Of a stretch of 43,372 nt of DNA, positions 1 through 43,372 are shown piece after piece. A model generated the notes under the pieces. The model was given only the letters and a program-made list of their open reading frames with translations. It ran no database searches and was not told where the DNA came from. Source of the stretch: Escherichia phage ZCEC5. The stretch lies in the sequence record NC_073321.1; one strand, 5' to 3'. Each line of letters opens with the position of its first letter. Position 1 is the stretch's first letter. The translations under genes were made by a program, and so were the position numbers.

Positions 1-486
1 ATGAGAAACATTAGCAACAATGGCATCAAATTCACCGCAGCGTTTGAGGGATTCCGTGGGACTGCGTATCGTGCTACGCCGAATGAGAAGTACCTGACTA
101 TCGGCTACGGGCACTATGGCCCAGACGTAACCCCAGGTAAGACCATCACACCTGGACAAGGTCTCCTGTTACTGAATCGCGATATGGCTAAGGCCGTAGC
201 TGCGGTTGATGCGGCAGCGCACCGCTCCCTGACACAGTCACAGTTCGACGCAGTATGCGACCTGGTGTATAACGCTGGTGCCGGTGTGATAGCAGCTACT
301 ACCGGCACAGGTAAGGCACTGCGTTCCGGTGATATTGCAACACTGCGTACCAAGCTGGCGCTGTTTATCAACCAGAACGGCAAACCATTACTAGGCCTGC
401 GCCGCCGTACAGCCGGTCGCCTGGCGCTGTTCGATGGCAAACCGTGGCAGGAGGCGGAGGCAATTGGGCGCGCGGTGAAAGGTTGA
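1..486 (+). CDS. Endolysin (phage lysozyme, T4-lysozyme/GH24-like)
   Basis: 161 aa; N-terminal EGFRGTAY...TIGYGHYG lysozyme-like motifs; ORF begins exactly at window start and may be coupled to the HNH gene at the window end if circular. Confidence 0.8.
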   Translation: MRNISNNGIKFTAAFEGFRGTAYRATPNEKYLTIGYGHYGPDVTPGKTITPGQGLLLLNRDMAKAVAAVDAAAHRSLTQSQFDAVCDLVYNAGAGVIAATTGTGKALRSGDIATLRTKLALFINQNGKPLLGLRRRTAGRLALFDGKPWQEAEAIGRAVKG

Positions 487-550
487 CACCTGGGACTAAT
501 CCGACGATACTTAAATCACCTCCTGTTTCATCCCTCTACTCTCCAGTTTT

Positions 551-583
551 ATCCCGGCACTGACCCAGCCGGGATTTTTTTTA
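551..583 (+). terminator. Intrinsic terminator after endolysin
   Basis: GC hairpin ATCCCGGC-loop-GCCGGGAT followed by T8 run. Confidence 0.6.
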
Positions 584-604: not shown

Positions 605-633
605 TTGACTATTATCCTCGACCCTACTATATT
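605..633 (+). promoter_or_regulatory. Sigma70-like promoter TTGACT-17-TATATT for the small-gene array
   Basis: -35 TTGACT at 605-610, 17-bp spacer, -10 TATATT at 628-633; about 33 bp upstream of first small ORF. Confidence 0.45.
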
Positions 634-3025: not shown

Positions 3026-3535
3026 ATGAAGCTGAAACTTAAGCAGCCATCGCCAGAGGTGGTGCAAGCTGCACATGAAGAAGCTGTTAGTGCAAACCGT
3101 CGCCGTAAACGACCGCGCGGTAAACAGAGCCTTTATCAATCATCCCGTAATTCCGCTGCGTTGTGGGACCCGGACTATTGCGACGCGTTAATCGAGTTCT
3201 TCGACCGCACGTCATGGGAGCTTGTGCCAACGTCTAAGGGTGATGAACGCCCGCTGATTCAGGATAAACCGCCATCGCTCGCCCGCTTTGCCCTACACAT
3301 CGGCGTCACTATCCCGATTATCAAGCTGTGGCTGCGTGAGATACCCGCGTTTGCAGAAGCCTATGAAACAGCACAGGCGCTGGAAGAGGCGTATTTCACT
3401 GAGACAGGGGCCGCGGGTATCTCCGCTACGTTCGCTGCCGCTAAGCTGGGGCTGAATAAAACTGTTGCCACTGAAGAAGTACGCGACGAGCCAATCAGTG
3501 AAGTAACAATTAAGGTGGTGTCCGGTGAACGTTAA
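3026..3535 (+). CDS. Terminase small subunit (putative)
   Basis: Position immediately upstream of and overlapping terminase large subunit; basic N-terminal region; RBS AAGGGGA before ATG 3026 (ORF-track frame 2987..3535). Confidence 0.6.
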   Translation: MKLKLKQPSPEVVQAAHEEAVSANRRRKRPRGKQSLYQSSRNSAALWDPDYCDALIEFFDRTSWELVPTSKGDERPLIQDKPPSLARFALHIGVTIPIIKLWLREIPAFAEAYETAQALEEAYFTETGAAGISATFAAAKLGLNKTVATEEVRDEPISEVTIKVVSGER

Positions 3536-4796
3536 TATCACGGCAACGGAACCGCAAGGCGCGTTTCTCGGTATGCACTGCAAGTTCCCTGCCTTCGTAG
3601 CGGGATTTGGCACTGGCAAATCCGAAGTCATGTGCAACTCTGCACTACTCGATAGCATGGAAGGTGGTAGCGATTCTATCATCGCCATGTATGAGCCAAC
3701 ATACGACCTTGTGCGTCTTATCCTTGCGCCGCGTATGGAAGAAAAACTCACCGACTGGGGTGTGAGGTACAAATACAACAAGTCCGACAACATAATCTAT
3801 ACATCATCCGGACAATTCGGTGATTTTGTTCTGCGTACACTAGATAATCCAGCACGAATCGTTGGTTACGAATCGTTTCGCGCAAAAATCGACGAGTTGG
3901 ACACCCTTAACATGGAACACGCTGAGCACGCGTGGAACAAAGTCATCGCCCGTAACCGCCAGTTACCGCGGACATATAAACCTATTACACCTAAACCGGC
4001 TAATACCGTTTCCGTGTTCACTACGCCGGAGGGATTCCGTTTCGTACATGACCGATGGGTGGTCAAAAAGAACCCTGGTTACGAGATGATTCAGGCATCC
4101 ACCCTGTCTAACCCGTTCCTGCCAGAAGATTATGTGCAGTCATTGCGTGACACCTATCCGGGTCAGTTGATCGACGCCTACATCAACGGCGAATTTGTCA
4201 ACCTAACGGCGGGAACCGTCTACTACGCTTACGACCGCAGGAAAAACAGCAGCCGCGAAACAATCAAGCCCGGCGAGACTCTGTATATCGGGCAGGACTT
4301 TAACGTAGGTCACATGGCGAGCACAGTTTACGTGCAACGGGGTAAAGTCTGGCATGCCGTTGCCGAGTTGGTTGATATGTTCGACACCCCGGATGTAGTG
4401 CGGGCCATAACTGAGCGATGGAAAAGTAAGGGCCACTATATCGTTATGTACCCGGACGCCAGCGGCAAAAACCGTAAAAGCAACAACGCCAGTACCTCTG
4501 ACATCGCCCAATTACAGCAGGCCGGGTTCGAAGTGCGTGCAAAATCGACAAACCCACCGGTTAAAGACCGCGTATCGGCGATGAATAAGGCGCTTGAATC
4601 TGGTATGGTCATGATTAACGAACAGGCTTGCCCGGTTACTGCTCGATGCCTGGAGCAACAGGCCTACGACAAGAACGGCGAACCGGATAAATCAGGTGGT
4701 GTGGACCACCAGAATGATGGAACCACATATCCTATCGCGTATGAAATGCCGATTCGCAAACCAGTAATCAACGTCCCGGTGACTTTCGCACTTTAA
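3525..4796 (+). CDS. Terminase large subunit
   Basis: 423 aa; Walker A-like GFGTGKS near N-terminus; GTG start with RBS AAGGTGG; gene order terS-terL-portal. Confidence 0.85.
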   Translation: MNVNITATEPQGAFLGMHCKFPAFVAGFGTGKSEVMCNSALLDSMEGGSDSIIAMYEPTYDLVRLILAPRMEEKLTDWGVRYKYNKSDNIIYTSSGQFGDFVLRTLDNPARIVGYESFRAKIDELDTLNMEHAEHAWNKVIARNRQLPRTYKPITPKPANTVSVFTTPEGFRFVHDRWVVKKNPGYEMIQASTLSNPFLPEDYVQSLRDTYPGQLIDAYINGEFVNLTAGTVYYAYDRRKNSSRETIKPGETLYIGQDFNVGHMASTVYVQRGKVWHAVAELVDMFDTPDVVRAITERWKSKGHYIVMYPDASGKNRKSNNASTSDIAQLQQAGFEVRAKSTNPPVKDRVSAMNKALESGMVMINEQACPVTARCLEQQAYDKNGEPDKSGGVDHQNDGTTYPIAYEMPIRKPVINVPVTFAL

Positions 4797-29477: not shown

Positions 29478-29936
29478 CTATTCTCTCGCCGCGCAGACCA
29501 CTTTGTACGCTTCCTCCTTTGTCGAAAAAGCACCGAGATATATGCGCTTCCCGTTCACGGTTATCCTTGCCCTAAATTTACCTCTTTCAGGCGATACCCC
29601 CTTTAAACATGAGGTGTTGTCGCGCCTTACCCTTGCGTTTCTGGTATTCTCCCACCTGGTCGCTAACCGCAGGTTGCAAATCCGATTATCCGCACGGTCG
29701 CCGTTTATATGGTCAACCTCCTCCGGCGGCATATCACCGTACACCCACCACCAAGCCAATCGGTGTGCCGGATAGTGGACGTTTCTGAACACAACTTTCA
29801 TATATCCAAGGTCAGTGTAGTTATTTATAACTTTCCCCGGAACAGACCGCGGGCCACTTCGCTTAACCCATTTGAATACCCCAGTATCAGGGTCGTACGA
29901 CAGAAAATCTTTTATATCGCCACTTGGTGCTTTCAT
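29478..29936 (-). CDS. HNH homing endonuclease with AP2-like DNA-binding domain
   Basis: DHINGDRADNRICNLR HNH motif; C-terminal AP2-like segment; N-terminal YDPDTGVFKW shared with two paralogs. Confidence 0.7.
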   Translation of the reverse strand: MKAPSGDIKDFLSYDPDTGVFKWVKRSGPRSVPGKVINNYTDLGYMKVVFRNVHYPAHRLAWWWVYGDMPPEEVDHINGDRADNRICNLRLATRWENTRNARVRRDNTSCLKGVSPERGKFRARITVNGKRIYLGAFSTKEEAYKVVCAARE

Positions 29937-30018
29937 AATACACACCCCTCACGTTTCGTGTGTTCAATCCCGCAGCGCGGACAGATTCGACAATCTTCTT
30001 CATAAAACCAGTAAATTT

Positions 30019-33300: not shown

Positions 33301-34538
33301 TCTAAATCCTCCTCTGTAACTTGATTCCACTCAGGACGTGTGTCATCCGCCGTTGCGACGCATGGCGCACCGGGCTTACGGGTAATGAAGTCTTTCAGTT
33401 CTTCTTCCGGTACAATTTTAACCGCTTCGGTCGGTGTCATAAGAACTACCTTTTGCAGCATAGTACCGTACTTCTCGAATACTGCGTCGGTATCTTTCCA
33501 CGCACGATTACCGGGGCGACCTTCAACCAGTTTGTATCCTGGCACTTTCTTACCTGAATGCAAAGCAGCAGCCATCGCTTTCTCAACCTTGTCGATGTGC
33601 TGGCGCAACAACGGCAGCTTCTCATACTCAGCGACGAGTTGCTCTGGCGTAAGTTCCAGCGCACAGTCGTCCTCAAGTTCTTCCGCCAGTACCGCGTTAA
33701 CGGTTTTTGTACGAGCTGCGCACTGTTCCGAGAAACGACACCACTGACAACCATCTACCGACGGCTTGAAGTCCGACGCTTTAAGGTTCTTCTTGCCGCG
33801 GTTATAGGCATCAAGTGCTAACAGTGCACGTTTCTGTGCGAACTTAGCGAACAGTTCCAGACCTTCAACCGAGATGTCCCACTCCGACGCGCCACCAGCG
33901 TACGGCTGAAAGATGACCAGACGAACGGTTGTTATGTTATAACGTCTCTTGAGTCGGCGATAAACACCGAGAGCGTAAAGCATAAGCTGCTTGTTTTCTT
34001 TCGCTTCGACACGATGTCGTCCTGTTTTCAGGTCGCCAATAATGAGCATGTACTCGTCGGTGTTAGCCAGTTCCTGAACGGCAACAAGGTCGGCGGTTCC
34101 GAAGGTTTCAACGCCTTCGTAACCTGGGTGCAATACCTCAGTAAGGTTAACGCGCATCTCGAGCTTGGCGTAAGTAGCTACATCGATAATCGGTTTGCAG
34201 TAGTCTGTGTACTTGCGCACCTGCTCAATCATATCCGCCGTAATCAGTACCGCGCCTTTCATCGGGCTGATTAGCGCCTTAATCTGACCTTTACCCTCAT
34301 CCAGCACGTAAGCGCCGACTTCACGCTCTAACGGCAACGCAGTGCCTTTTATATACTGGTTTAGATGGACCTCAGCTATAGTGTGACATGCGGTTCCTGT
34401 AACTGCGGATTTACCAGACGTGTTAGGAATATCTTTTTCACAGGCCAGTGATGCAGCGCATGACAGCCACTTTTTAGCCCCGGACGGCGACAGTAAAGCG
34501 TGTACGTCGTTATTGCCACCGCGTTCTTTTAGAATCAT
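33297..34538 (-). CDS. DUF2800-like PD-(D/E)xK nuclease with C-terminal Cys cluster (Cas4/RecB-like)
   Basis: N-terminal LLSPSGAKKWLSC, catalytic-type GDLKTG, C-terminal CQWCRFSEQC. Confidence 0.7.
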   Translation of the reverse strand: MILKERGGNNDVHALLSPSGAKKWLSCAASLACEKDIPNTSGKSAVTGTACHTIAEVHLNQYIKGTALPLEREVGAYVLDEGKGQIKALISPMKGAVLITADMIEQVRKYTDYCKPIIDVATYAKLEMRVNLTEVLHPGYEGVETFGTADLVAVQELANTDEYMLIIGDLKTGRHRVEAKENKQLMLYALGVYRRLKRRYNITTVRLVIFQPYAGGASEWDISVEGLELFAKFAQKRALLALDAYNRGKKNLKASDFKPSVDGCQWCRFSEQCAARTKTVNAVLAEELEDDCALELTPEQLVAEYEKLPLLRQHIDKVEKAMAAALHSGKKVPGYKLVEGRPGNRAWKDTDAVFEKYGTMLQKVVLMTPTEAVKIVPEEELKDFITRKPGAPCVATADDTRPEWNQVTEEDLE

Positions 34539-35032
34539 TTCTCGTCTCCGTTAACTGTAAAGCCGTATTTAATTTCGGCTTGCCTACGAGCCTTAGCTGC
34601 GTTCTCTAATTTATCGTAAGCCCCTAAATAAATCGGCGTACCGTCTACATAAATTCTTGCAACCCACTTACCGCAGCGTTTATGAAACCCAACACCTTTA
34701 ACCCCTGAAGTATTGTCAGCCCGTACGCTGGTGCCGTGTGCGATGCTACCTCGACGCATTTTTATAAGATTTTCTATCCTGTTATCAGTTCTATCTTTAT
34801 TTTCGTGACGAATTACTTCCCCCGGCGCTATCGGCCCGTTAAACATCTCCCAAACAACGTGGTGGATAAGTTTAGTAGCACCGTTAAAACGCAGTATTTT
34901 AAATTCACTCCCATCGTTATCCACCCTCGTACTGCCGGCTTCCTGTCCTATTTTTACAGATTTTGACGGGCTTATTTTCCAAAACAATTTACCTGTATCA
35001 CGGTCGTAGTCAAAAACTTCACGCCAATTCAT
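34535..35032 (-). CDS. HNH-AP2 homing endonuclease paralog (degenerate HNH motif)
   Basis: N-terminal FDYDRDTGKLFWK; HNH region reads IRHENKDRTDNRIENL; C-terminal AP2-like YLGAYDKLENAAKARR; ATG 35032 overlaps upstream stop. Confidence 0.6.
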   Translation of the reverse strand: MNWREVFDYDRDTGKLFWKISPSKSVKIGQEAGSTRVDNDGSEFKILRFNGATKLIHHVVWEMFNGPIAPGEVIRHENKDRTDNRIENLIKMRRGSIAHGTSVRADNTSGVKGVGFHKRCGKWVARIYVDGTPIYLGAYDKLENAAKARRQAEIKYGFTVNGDEK

Positions 35033-35301
35033 GCCAAAGTCTCCCACTGGTCAATTAAATGTCGTGTCTGGTGATGGCAATGCATGGCCCACCCGTACAT
35101 CGACTCGAAGACATAAAAGTCAGGTTTGGCGAAAGTCGTGCGCTTAATCTGCGACACGTGACGGCCTATATCTTTAGGCCGTGGTACTTTGCCTAAGTAC
35201 GCCATCTCTTCCATCTGGTGCGCACCGGACGGCGCACGCAACAGCCACAACGCCTCTGTGTTATCCCGCCTGTCAACGGCGCGGTAGAGTTGGTAAACCA
35301 T
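35029..35301 (-). CDS. Hypothetical protein (90 aa)
   Basis: RBS GAGGG; His-rich segment HCHHQTRH. Confidence 0.45.
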   Translation of the reverse strand: MVYQLYRAVDRRDNTEALWLLRAPSGAHQMEEMAYLGKVPRPKDIGRHVSQIKRTTFAKPDFYVFESMYGWAMHCHHQTRHLIDQWETLA

Positions 35302-41738: not shown

Positions 41739-41923
41739 TTATGGTGCAGAGATATACCTACGACCAGATATTCGGGTTTACTCCCGATGTTGAGGGCGTG
41801 TTAGTGCTTTACGAAGATTACGCGAAACTCGAAGCTGAGTTACAGAAATACAAAGACCAGTTCCCGGATTACGTCGAGTGCGCGAACTGTGGGTCAGTTA
41901 CGCATGTGGAAGGGGTGGAGTGA
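41735..41923 (+). CDS. Hypothetical protein (62 aa)
   Basis: ATGA-coupled; C-terminal CANCGS. Confidence 0.45.
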   Translation: MIMVQRYTYDQIFGFTPDVEGVLVLYEDYAKLEAELQKYKDQFPDYVECANCGSVTHVEGVE

Positions 41924-42216
41924 TGTCGTTAGCAACTGACATCCTGAAACGAAGCGGCCTTTCGCCGCTGTCGCCGAGAGCTAAAACACAGATATACAAG
42001 CGTCGGGGTAACGCGCTGTACCCCGAGATTCAGGCCCGACGCAAAGCTATACGCGCCTGTGGATTCCAGAACGGGAAGGCCGTGAATCTCGGCGAGTTTA
42101 AAACACAGGAACGCGCAGCAATCGCTAATCGGCTATTTAATTACTGGAAATCGCTCGGATACGATGATATTCCGACGAAACCGCAGAGACGACAATACAT
42201 CTGGCGTCACAAATAA
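41923..42216 (+). CDS. Standalone AP2-like DNA-binding protein
   Basis: GKAVNLGEFKTQERAAIANRLF resembles the AP2-like C-termini of the three HNH proteins; no HNH motif. Confidence 0.45.
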   Translation: MSLATDILKRSGLSPLSPRAKTQIYKRRGNALYPEIQARRKAIRACGFQNGKAVNLGEFKTQERAAIANRLFNYWKSLGYDDIPTKPQRRQYIWRHK

Positions 42217-42246
42217 ACAGTTATTAAGATAAATCCTAAGCGTGGT

Positions 42247-42286
42247 ATCCTCCAGTTACTGCATACTTAATACGCACCTGGAGGAT
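42247..42286 (+). promoter_or_regulatory. RNA hairpin sequestering the Shine-Dalgarno of the holin gene
   Basis: 9-bp stem ATCCTCCAG / CTGGAGGAT with 22-nt loop; right arm holds GGAGG 7 nt before the TTG start. Confidence 0.4.
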
Positions 42287-42291
42287 TCATC

Positions 42292-42600
42292 TTGGATAAA
42301 TTTACTGAAACAGTGACAGGCTGGCTCCTCGCCGCCGCACTAGCCGGTGGGGTAATCGGACTACGACAACATAAGTCCGCTATTTCCGGCCCTATCGACG
42401 GATTCTGCTTTATTGCAACCGGCTTCACCTGCGCCGTATTTGGTGCGCCTCTCGCGGCTCAATGGTTCGATATTACTGGTGAGCGTGAAATCGCTGGTCT
42501 GGGATTCATCATCGCTATTCTCTGGATGCCTATTTATTCCCGCCTCTCCGGTATCGTCTCTGGAGAATACATCGCTCGTCGAGGAGGCACAGATGAATGA
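42292..42600 (+). CDS. Holin candidate (class I-like, 3 TM segments)
   Basis: 102 aa, three hydrophobic helices, charged C-terminus; TTG start; adjacent to endolysin across the window junction. Confidence 0.5.
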   Translation: MDKFTETVTGWLLAAALAGGVIGLRQHKSAISGPIDGFCFIATGFTCAVFGAPLAAQWFDITGEREIAGLGFIIAILWMPIYSRLSGIVSGEYIARRGGTDE

Positions 42601-42865
42601 GTTATTCTGGTTCGGTGGTATGCTGGCAATCGGGGGCACATCGCTGTTTAATGTGTATCATCCCAGCGTGGACGACGGATTATTTGGCCGGGTGCTCTAT
42701 ATCCTGACTGCCATCGTCTGTGCCGCCGGATGTATCCACCTGTTACAGGGCAGCATGTCACCTACGTTGCCTGAGACATTAATCACATTAGTTGCGCTGC
42801 GCCAGATTCGCCAGGCGTGGCTATCATACGGAGGACATAAGCGTGTCTCGAAACATTTCAGATAA
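42593..42865 (+). CDS. Second small membrane protein of lysis cassette (holin/antiholin candidate, 2 TM)
   Basis: 90 aa; RBS GAGGAGG; ATGA-coupled; basic C-terminus. Confidence 0.4.
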   Translation: MNELFWFGGMLAIGGTSLFNVYHPSVDDGLFGRVLYILTAIVCAAGCIHLLQGSMSPTLPETLITLVALRQIRQAWLSYGGHKRVSKHFR

Positions 42866-43372
42866 TGGGCTTACCGCAGATAAACTGCGGGAGGTTTTAC
42901 ACTACAACCCTGACACCGGAGTTTTTACATGGAAATCTACACGCGTGCACAATGCTCGGGTGGGGAGTGAGGCTGGGGCCAACCATGGCGCAGGCTATCG
43001 CTCCATAGCCCTCGGCGGGAAGCGGTACTTGGCGCATCGTCTCGCCTGGCTATACATGACAGGGGAGTGGCCCAACTCCCTGATAGACCACATAAACGGC
43101 GATGGACGTGATAATAGATTCTGTAATTTACGTGAAGCCAACAAATCCGAAAACGGATGCAACAAAGGGCCAAGAAAGGACAGCAAATCTGGTATTAAGA
43201 ACGTTATGTGGCAGAAGCAACAAGGAGGATGGTACGTTCAATTAAAAATACATAAGATTAAGTATTTTTACGGATACTTTGCGGACCTAGAACTAGCCGC
43301 GCTAGTTGCCGAAGAAGCTAGAGAGAAGATACACGGGGTTTTTGCGAACCATAAATTACGGGAAGGTGCTTT
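42843..43372 (+). CDS. HNH-AP2 homing endonuclease (3' end runs off the window)
   Basis: GTG start with RBS GGAGGA; DHINGDGRDNRFCNLR HNH motif; AP2-like segment; no stop before window end. Confidence 0.7.
   Translation, partial: MSRNISDNGLTADKLREVLHYNPDTGVFTWKSTRVHNARVGSEAGANHGAGYRSIALGGKRYLAHRLAWLYMTGEWPNSLIDHINGDGRDNRFCNLREANKSENGCNKGPRKDSKSGIKNVMWQKQQGGWYVQLKIHKIKYFYGYFADLELAALVAEEAREKIHGVFANHKLREGA

Follow-up and report, generated by a model that had tools for sequence, protein, structure and literature searches.

The lysis cassette of this phage genome carries an HNH gene between its second holin gene and its endolysin gene; in our reading, to which we give a probability of roughly 0.88 from sequence comparison, this gene would be a mobile free-standing homing endonuclease gene (HEG) that spreads by homing and decays by deletion, and it lies across the ends of a closed genome that was cut at an arbitrary point. 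The window, meaning the whole stretch of 43,372 nucleotides that was analysed, contains the following features of the cassette.

42292-42600, plus strand: holin-I, class-I-like, 102 aa, TTG start (phrog_2359 holin, 5e-30)
42593-42865, plus strand: holin-II, class-II-like, 90 aa, ATG start (phrog_2508 holin, 1.9e-33)
42830-42835 and 42843-42845, plus strand: Shine-Dalgarno sequence GGAGGA and GTG start, which begin the HNH gene here and the endolysin gene in empty-site relatives
42843..43372, plus strand: first 530 of the 534 nt of the HNH gene (Pfam HNH_3; phrog_99)
42850..42857, plus strand: left copy of the 8-bp direct repeat GAAACATT, from the alignment with the empty-site phage Bas71
43360..43368, plus strand: Shine-Dalgarno-like sequence GGGAAGGTG within the 3′ end of the HNH gene, its AAGG 6 nt before the new endolysin ATG
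1..4, plus strand: last base of the final Leu codon of the HNH gene (TT/A) and its TGA, overlapping the endolysin ATG as ATGA
1-486, plus strand: endolysin, a GH24 phage lysozyme of 161 aa (Pfam Phage_lysozyme, 4.7e-27; phrog_33703 and phrog_7)
5..12, plus strand: right copy of GAAACATT, from the same alignment with Bas71
551..583, plus strand: intrinsic terminator at the end of the cassette (-14.3 kcal/mol, z -3.3)

The original prediction had named a holin candidate at 42292-42600, a second membrane protein at 42593-42865 and the gene order holin, second holin, HNH, endolysin, and the PHROG and Pfam matches bear out all three, with a holin profile matched by each of the two membrane proteins. 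Holin-I has three hydrophobic segments, visible as hydropathy peaks, and a charged C-terminus, and a 309-nt holin is annotated at the same position in phages BUCT825, Bas71 and Bas73. Holin-II overlaps holin-I as ATGA and its final 23 nt overlap the start of the HNH gene, while the endolysin ORF is unbroken from its new ATG. The window thus holds the cassette of the Guernseyvirinae, in which a class-I-like and a class-II-like holin are followed by a Phage_lysozyme endolysin and the genes overlap, and it is collinear with the annotated cassettes of Bas71, fFiEco03, Ent1 and others.

Two RNA structures border the cassette. Just upstream of holin-I, a stable hairpin on the plus strand (42236..42295; -22.1 kcal/mol, z -4.33, with 0 of 200 shuffles folding equally well) extends to the TTG start and holds in its 3′ arm the holin-I Shine-Dalgarno sequence GGAGGA (42281-42286). 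This hairpin is separate from the HEG and may control translation or termination in the cassette. Its stem is identical in nine Kagunavirus loci, so that a covariation test is impossible, and a different hairpin with a T-run lies at the equivalent place in Jerseyviruses, where a terminator is annotated in Ent1; a search for a consensus fold across both genera returned no consensus structure, because the Kagunavirus and Jerseyvirus sequences are unrelated at this hairpin. At the other end, the terminator at 551..583 is formed by an 8-bp stem, a 9-nt loop and an 8-U run of which the first U closes the stem, and it had been missed by a simple terminator scan because its loop is longer than 8 nt.

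Read from the GTG at 42843, the third ORF of the cassette meets no stop up to 43372, as had been noticed before. When the end of the window was joined to its start and the ORFs were re-read, the frame closed in the way originally predicted (...GGT GCT TT/A TGA), giving a protein of 177 aa with the C-terminus ...REGAL and a stop codon TGA (bases 2-4) that overlaps the endolysin ATG (bases 1-3) in an ATGA arrangement. The earlier label of this protein as HNH-AP2 stands in its first half: HNH_3 is matched over profile positions 1-45 of 46 (2.5e-14, 53.1 bits, cut-off 24.8) and the HNH endonuclease family phrog_99 at 7e-69. The HNH_3 motif occupies residues 62-105 (nt 43026-43157), and its DH...N...N residues are conserved in alignment with HNH paralogues, leaving the ββα-metal motif intact. 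The second half of the label stays below threshold, since the AP2-like C-terminal region (residues 117-165, nt 43191-43337) matches PF00847 over profile positions 2-53 of 54 with an E-value of 0.0019 and 18.9 bits against a cut-off of 33.3. A sequence search of the PDB with the HNH protein returned chance-level matches only (E 0.25 and 0.38). The gene is under purifying selection, with dN/dS of 0.08-0.13. Searches against Rfam families, including group I and group II introns, gave no match in the window or at the BUCT825 locus, and the gene is therefore free-standing; by its sequence it would be a textbook free-standing HNH homing endonuclease.

In relatives without the HNH gene, such as Bas71, holin-II directly overlaps the endolysin gene, which agrees with the prediction that the cassette is interrupted here. 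Compared with such empty-site relatives, the insert amounts to approximately 527 bp and lies a few codons into the endolysin gene, within the overlap of holin-II and endolysin; the cassette spans about 1270 nt in most relatives versus 1796 nt with the insert. Alignments show that the GTG from which the HNH gene is read is the endolysin start in Bas71, Bas75, GZMU_E2010 and EC3-1. In Bas71, the endolysin gene begins behind the same GGAGGA with GTG TCT CGA AAC ATT AGC AAC AAT GGC (VSRNISNNGIKF) and overlaps the end of holin-II, whereas the HNH ORF of the window is read from this GTG (VSRNISDNGL-TADKLREVLHYNPDTG...) and the endolysin restarts at a new ATG as MRNISNNGIKF..., which replaces the ancestral VSRNISNNG.... 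The HEG frame thus uses the ribosome-binding site and GTG of the endolysin gene and is joined to its first ~10 codons, and the 3′ end of the insert provides a Shine-Dalgarno-like sequence and a new ATG, from which the 5′ codons of the endolysin follow once more. Owing to this fusion and the regenerated head, all three genes remain intact: holin-II gains two residues (ending ...VSKHFR in the window versus ...VSKH in the empty-site Bas71) and the endolysin changes from VSR... to MR.... The sequence GGGAAGGTG may be a replacement ribosome-binding site supplied by the insert. The GAAACATT repeats flank the insert and belong to a duplication of endolysin codons 3-10 whose copies have diverged (TCAGATAATGGGCTT on the left and AGCAACAATGGCATC on the right).

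That HNH codons 1 to ~10 (VSRNISDNGL) are endolysin-derived follows from paralogues at other loci, which lack this N-terminus. Two further HNH paralogues lie on the minus strand of the window (29478-29945 and 34535-35047), and these, together with a paralogue in the Felixounavirus fjerdesal, have the core in common with the cassette protein from L-T-x3-L-x3-L-x-Y-x-P-x-T-G on, but their N-termini are unrelated to that of the cassette protein. The N-terminal ~10 residues are common only to HNH genes at the cassette site and to endolysins.

The site is empty, with the endolysin read from the GTG that opens the HNH gene here, in about 170 Kagunavirus and 300 Jerseyvirus records. At least 80% coverage of the cassette query was reached by 1 of 174 Kagunavirus-type and 15 of 342 Jerseyvirus-type matches; the remaining matches were mostly empty at exactly the cassette site, and the empty sites align base for base. 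Both the element and its site were known before. In Salmonella phage vB_SenS_AG11 (JX297445), AG11_58, annotated as an HNH endonuclease between the holin-like AG11_57 and the lysozyme AG11_59, is the same gene at the same site between holin-II and endolysin, and further copies are found in SETP13, SETP7, SB3, pink, STP03 and S4lw (Jerseyvirus) and in BUCT825 (Kagunavirus), with 95-97% amino acid and ~95% nucleotide identity to the window gene (97.2% amino acid identity for the BUCT825 copy, 95-96% for the Jerseyvirus copies). An annotated HNH endonuclease adjoins the holin at the cassette locus in SETP13, SETP7, SB3 and pink, and the order holin, HNH, endolysin is annotated in S102 and SHAK7858 too. 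Since the arrangement had already been annotated in AG11, S102 and SHAK7858, the window gene is a new copy of this element. The copies in BUCT825, STP03 and S4lw show the same ATGA overlap and the same replacement endolysin start MRNISNNG as the window, whereas the first codons of the HNH gene follow the recipient genus, being VSR... in the window and MPNR... in Jerseyviruses.

The flanks of these copies tell a different history from the gene. In comparisons with the Jerseyviruses STP03, AG11 and S4lw, nucleotide identity is 95% in the HNH gene of the window but 37-51% in the holin genes and 72-74% in the endolysin gene. Moreover, the divergence does not follow genus, as dS for the BUCT825 gene is 0.068 against that of AG11 and 0.164 against that of the window. 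Homing drive would account for a gene that is sporadic in each genus yet near-identical between Kagunavirus and Jerseyvirus.

In both genera, some phages have an HNH gene of a second lineage at this site: Salmonella phage S102 and its relatives, and Escherichia phages SHAK7858 and DUEC01. The proteins of this lineage are 51-55% identical to the window HNH protein and carry the N-terminal fusion (V/M)S(N)RNISDNGL likewise. In S102, SHAK7858 and DUEC01, this lineage has the HNH plus AP2-like architecture and brings a new Shine-Dalgarno sequence (AAGGAG at the position equivalent to GGGAAGGTG), ATG and endolysin 5′ end as in the window, but it differs in its regenerated endolysin head (MRSMSDNGLKFTAAWEDF, MRSMSDNGLKF) and in a longer co-conversion tract of ~120 nt. 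Between SHAK7858 and S102, the first 120 nt of the endolysin gene are 95-100% identical across genera and the identity then falls to 62-80%, with the mirror pattern in within-genus comparisons of the endolysin; on this pattern, the 120-nt stretch is a classic co-conversion tract. In the lineage of the window, elevated identity (95% to AG11) is confined to the first 40 nt, a stretch that is conserved in empty-site genomes too and is therefore weak evidence for co-conversion in this lineage.

Decay is represented by Bas73, Bas74 and one IMG/VR contig, in which a 417-nt in-frame deletion between GTTTT microhomologies has shortened the HNH gene to an ORF of 38 aa, with its ATGA overlap retained. 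Further HEG remnants were considered in GZMU_E2010, Bas75, EC3-1 and SHAK7693, whose matches are 100-165 nt longer than the empty-site length, and were rejected as the excess lies downstream of the endolysin gene; in SHAK7693, the extra length is a 31-nt tandem duplication inside the endolysin gene. The endolysin need not be strictly coupled in translation to the HNH gene, as both HNH lineages have a Shine-Dalgarno-like sequence before the new ATG, and the single in-frame remnant is weak evidence for such coupling.

The strongest competitor of the mobile element, though an improbable one, is a gene that was once mobile and is now a domesticated or vertically inherited passenger, which might act in competition between phages (marker exclusion) or, through its coupling to endolysin translation, in lysis timing, with no active homing. 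Purifying selection is indeed strong (dN/dS about 0.1), the gene is co-transcribed and overlapping with the lysis genes, and the sole known decayed copy retained its frame into the endolysin ATGA. However, a frame kept in one deletion event is a chance of one in three, and near-identical copies stand in two genera despite highly diverged flanks, which domestication fits less well than a mobile HEG does. Together with the co-conversion tracts of the sister lineage, this cross-genus near-identity argues for recent movement.

T-even and other phages contain free-standing HEGs, such as the seg and mob genes of T4, which sit sporadically between conserved genes and spread by cleavage of the HEG-less allele, repair and co-conversion of the flanks. 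The steps proposed for the mobile HEG of the cassette are modelled on such genes. The HNH enzyme would be made late, together with the lysis genes, and in a mixed infection would cut or nick the genomes of HEG-less relatives at the conserved 5′ end of their endolysin gene; the cut genome would then be repaired with the HEG-bearing one as template and so acquire the HEG and a short adjacent tract of the endolysin gene. The occupied allele would presumably be safe from self-cleavage through its duplicated and diverged target halves, and the HEG might afterwards decay by deletion, as in Bas73 and Bas74. Like the T4 seg and mob genes and the HNH genes of T1-like phages, the window gene is sporadic between conserved genes; unlike the T4-type HEGs, it does not simply lie between genes, since its reading frame begins with codons of its target, to which it is fused in translation, and it regenerates the 5′ end of that target. 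Sporadic HNH genes adjoining the endolysin have been reported in the lysis module of T1 and other Drexlerviridae (PMC13164509), and homing endonucleases have been mentioned as mobile elements of Jerseyviruses (PMC8425127).

The empty-site endolysin genes of Kagunaviruses have two 5′ alleles, VSRNISNNGIKF in Bas71 and VSRNISDNGLHF in Bas75, GZMU_E2010 and EC3-1, which differ at ~10 of 18 nt within conserved surrounding sequence. The insert has a left junction of the VSRNISDNGLHF type and a regenerated head of the VSRNISNNGIKF type. An origin of the VSRNISDNGLHF allele from HEG deletion through recombination of the duplicated ends was considered and rejected as a simple account, since it would yield ...SDNGIKF, which is not seen. 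A broader interpretation of these junctions, which we offer tentatively and regard as rather doubtful, is that the insert could be a 'head-replacement' homing cassette that takes the start signals of the endolysin gene and supplies a substitute, that at least two HNH lineages may compete for the site in two genera, and that the allele dimorphism might be the footprint of an arms race over cleavage resistance. No description of the head-replacement design, of the sharing of the site by two lineages or of the dimorphic endolysin 5′ end was found in the literature searched.

The original prediction also held that the sequence is a closed unit, and this view is upheld by relatives that carry the same junction inside their records. 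The junction is interior in at least seven independent genomes or contigs, including BUCT825, Bas73, Bas74, STP03, S4lw, AG11 and IMG/VR contigs. In BUCT825 and Bas73 it reads GGTGCTTTATGAGAAACATT; STP03 and S4lw differ from it by one substitution (GCTAT for GCTTT), in AG11 a 1-nt deletion immediately upstream alters the last residues of the HNH protein, and in Bas73 and Bas74 the junction lies next to the HNH remnant. An exact 30-mer over the window boundary was found in two IMG/VR contigs, one of which has the full HNH gene contiguous with the endolysin gene. In BUCT825, holin, holin, HNH and lysozyme lie in the interior of the record, at 14.1-16.1 kb of 44 kb, and tblastn aligned an uninterrupted 177-aa HNH protein with 97.2% amino acid identity over 100% of the query, the split codon included. 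The cassette stands at 2, 14, 32 or 40 kb in different Kagunavirus records, which were therefore opened at arbitrary points. Because the same junction is interior in relatives, the window boundary is an arbitrary linearisation and no physical end; as read from the aligned junctions, the join is exact, with no base missing and none duplicated.

A true physical genome end at this boundary, with the continuity of the frame being incidental or due to a short terminal redundancy, would be highly unlikely. The window begins exactly on an ATG, which might look deliberate, but the interior junctions, the full-length match to BUCT825 across the boundary and the many starting places of Kagunavirus records all speak against such an end, and no direct terminal repeat of 5-400 bp was found in the window. 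In addition, the TerL gene (3525-4796) is of the Terminase_6N/6C type, and headful packaging was predicted by PhageTerm for a Jerseyvirus relative of the same subfamily (PMC9409062). These two points give indirect support to circularly permuted, headful-packaged virion DNA, which may be how this phage packages; literature searches found no direct statement on packaging in Kagunaviruses. A junction-spanning query matched 174 phage records, the majority from Escherichia phages in the genus Kagunavirus; the best record match to the first 25 kb of the window had only 82% coverage and 90.7% identity, and the exact endolysin sequence of the window had no match in the contig collection. From these comparisons, the window is taken to be one complete, non-redundant genome unit of a Kagunavirus (Guernseyvirinae), a siphophage of E. 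coli, linearised at the endolysin ATG.

Equally remote is the idea that the HNH protein is no mobile element at all but a packaging accessory of the HK97 gp74 type acting with the terminase: some phage packaging machines include HNH proteins (Kala et al. 2014, cited for a Kagunavirus in PMC9825357), the HNH ββα-metal motif is common to both proteins, and the gene precedes the terminase genes by ~3 kb once the circle is closed. But the domain context of the window protein is different, and the gene neither adjoins terminase or portal genes nor is conserved among relatives, being missing from over 90% of the close relatives with normal packaging. The endolysin gene, the terminator at 551-583 and about ten small genes separate it from the terminase, its nucleotide identities follow the pattern of an island that moves horizontally, and natural deletion remnants are tolerated in Bas73 and Bas74.

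As a mobile HEG in a lysis cassette, the feature is ordinary and current understanding is unchanged by it; the head-replacement design, the two HNH lineages at one site over two genera and the dimorphic endolysin 5′ end are mildly interesting. For practical purposes, the genome is best handled as closed and rotated to keep the HNH gene whole, and errors at this locus exist in public records: that of BUCT825 splits the HNH gene into two fragments, and those of STP03 and S4lw give product names displaced by one gene. The start codon of the endolysin differs with the presence or absence of the HEG, and if the insert does replace the endolysin head in the way outlined above, endolysin dosage or lysis timing would depend on HEG state. 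The site offers a natural series at a single position, consisting of the empty state, the intact HEG, a second HEG lineage and an in-frame remnant, which could serve as a model for the cycle of HEG invasion and decay and for gene flow between phages of E. coli and Salmonella.

In the second HNH lineage, a diverged HNH gene occupying the same site between holin-II and the endolysin gene, approximately 120 nt of the endolysin gene is 95-100% identical between the Escherichia coli phage SHAK7858 and the Salmonella phage S102, and beyond this tract the endolysin of the two phages tracks host genus. Judging from these sequence comparisons, the tract is a co-conversion tract. The region in the extracted loci of the two phages is as follows:

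L006 (SHAK7858), 2004-2160: second-lineage co-conversion region
L013 (S102), 2001-2160: second-lineage co-conversion region

Among Kagunaviruses with an empty site (HEG-less), the 5′ end of the endolysin gene is sharply dimorphic, reading either VSRNISNNGIKF or VSRNISDNGLHF (loci L003, L008, L009 and L011; window positions 5-40). This dimorphism is restricted to codons 6-12, the precise place of HNH insertion, and variation in the target site may be responsible for it.

An HNH remnant was detected in Bas73 (L002, 2097-2213), Bas74 and the IMG/VR sequence 3300015188_000003 (L017), in all of which it represents an in-frame loss of 417 nt with GTTTT microhomologies at the ends. The 38-aa ORF that is left retains the ATGA overlap with the endolysin gene at its end; the ORF annotated at this site in the Bas73 record is 105 nt long and lies in another frame. 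Together with the lysis-cassette copy, two paralogues whose N-termini are unrelated to it bring the HNH/AP2-like endonuclease genes of the ZCEC5 genome to three:

29478-29945, minus strand: HNH/AP2-like endonuclease paralogue, 36% identity to the lysis-cassette HNH
34535-35047, minus strand: HNH/AP2-like endonuclease paralogue, 30% identity to the lysis-cassette HNH

Annotation problems were found in public records PV040721, KY176369, OQ660438, OR594183 and OR594180. The intact HNH gene of BUCT825 is entered as an out-of-frame 144-nt ORF plus a 348-nt truncated "endonuclease", and product names are displaced by one gene in the STP03 and S4lw records. SHAK7858 and SHAK7693 are Kagunavirus-like, yet they are catalogued as Autographiviridae/Kayfunavirus; a tandem duplication of 31 nt splits the SHAK7693 endolysin gene.

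No spanin genes were recognised adjoining the lysis cassette. Downstream of the endolysin gene, an intrinsic terminator, overlooked by a simple scan limited to loops of ≤8 nt on account of its 9-nt loop, sits between two sigma-70-like promoters, and a variable slot precedes holin-I:

483-511, plus strand: sigma-70-like promoter, 10/12 positions matching
551-583, plus strand: intrinsic terminator after the endolysin gene
605-633, plus strand: sigma-70-like promoter, 10/12 positions matching
41878-42216, plus strand: phrog_9632 gene of unknown function in the variable slot directly 5′ of holin-I, its product without a Pfam match
42236-42295, plus strand: strong RNA hairpin predicted by folding, -22.1 kcal/mol, z -4.33

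The slot holds an HslV-like peptidase gene in BUCT825, Bas73, SHAK7693 and EC3-1, and a different small ORF in Bas71. The hairpin extends to the TTG start of holin-I and encloses its Shine-Dalgarno sequence, and its stem shows no variation across nine Kagunavirus loci. Jerseyviruses carry at the equivalent position an unrelated hairpin with a T-run, which is annotated as a terminator in Ent1. One possible role of the Kagunavirus hairpin is to regulate how the holin is translated; another is to govern read-through that enters the lysis cassette.
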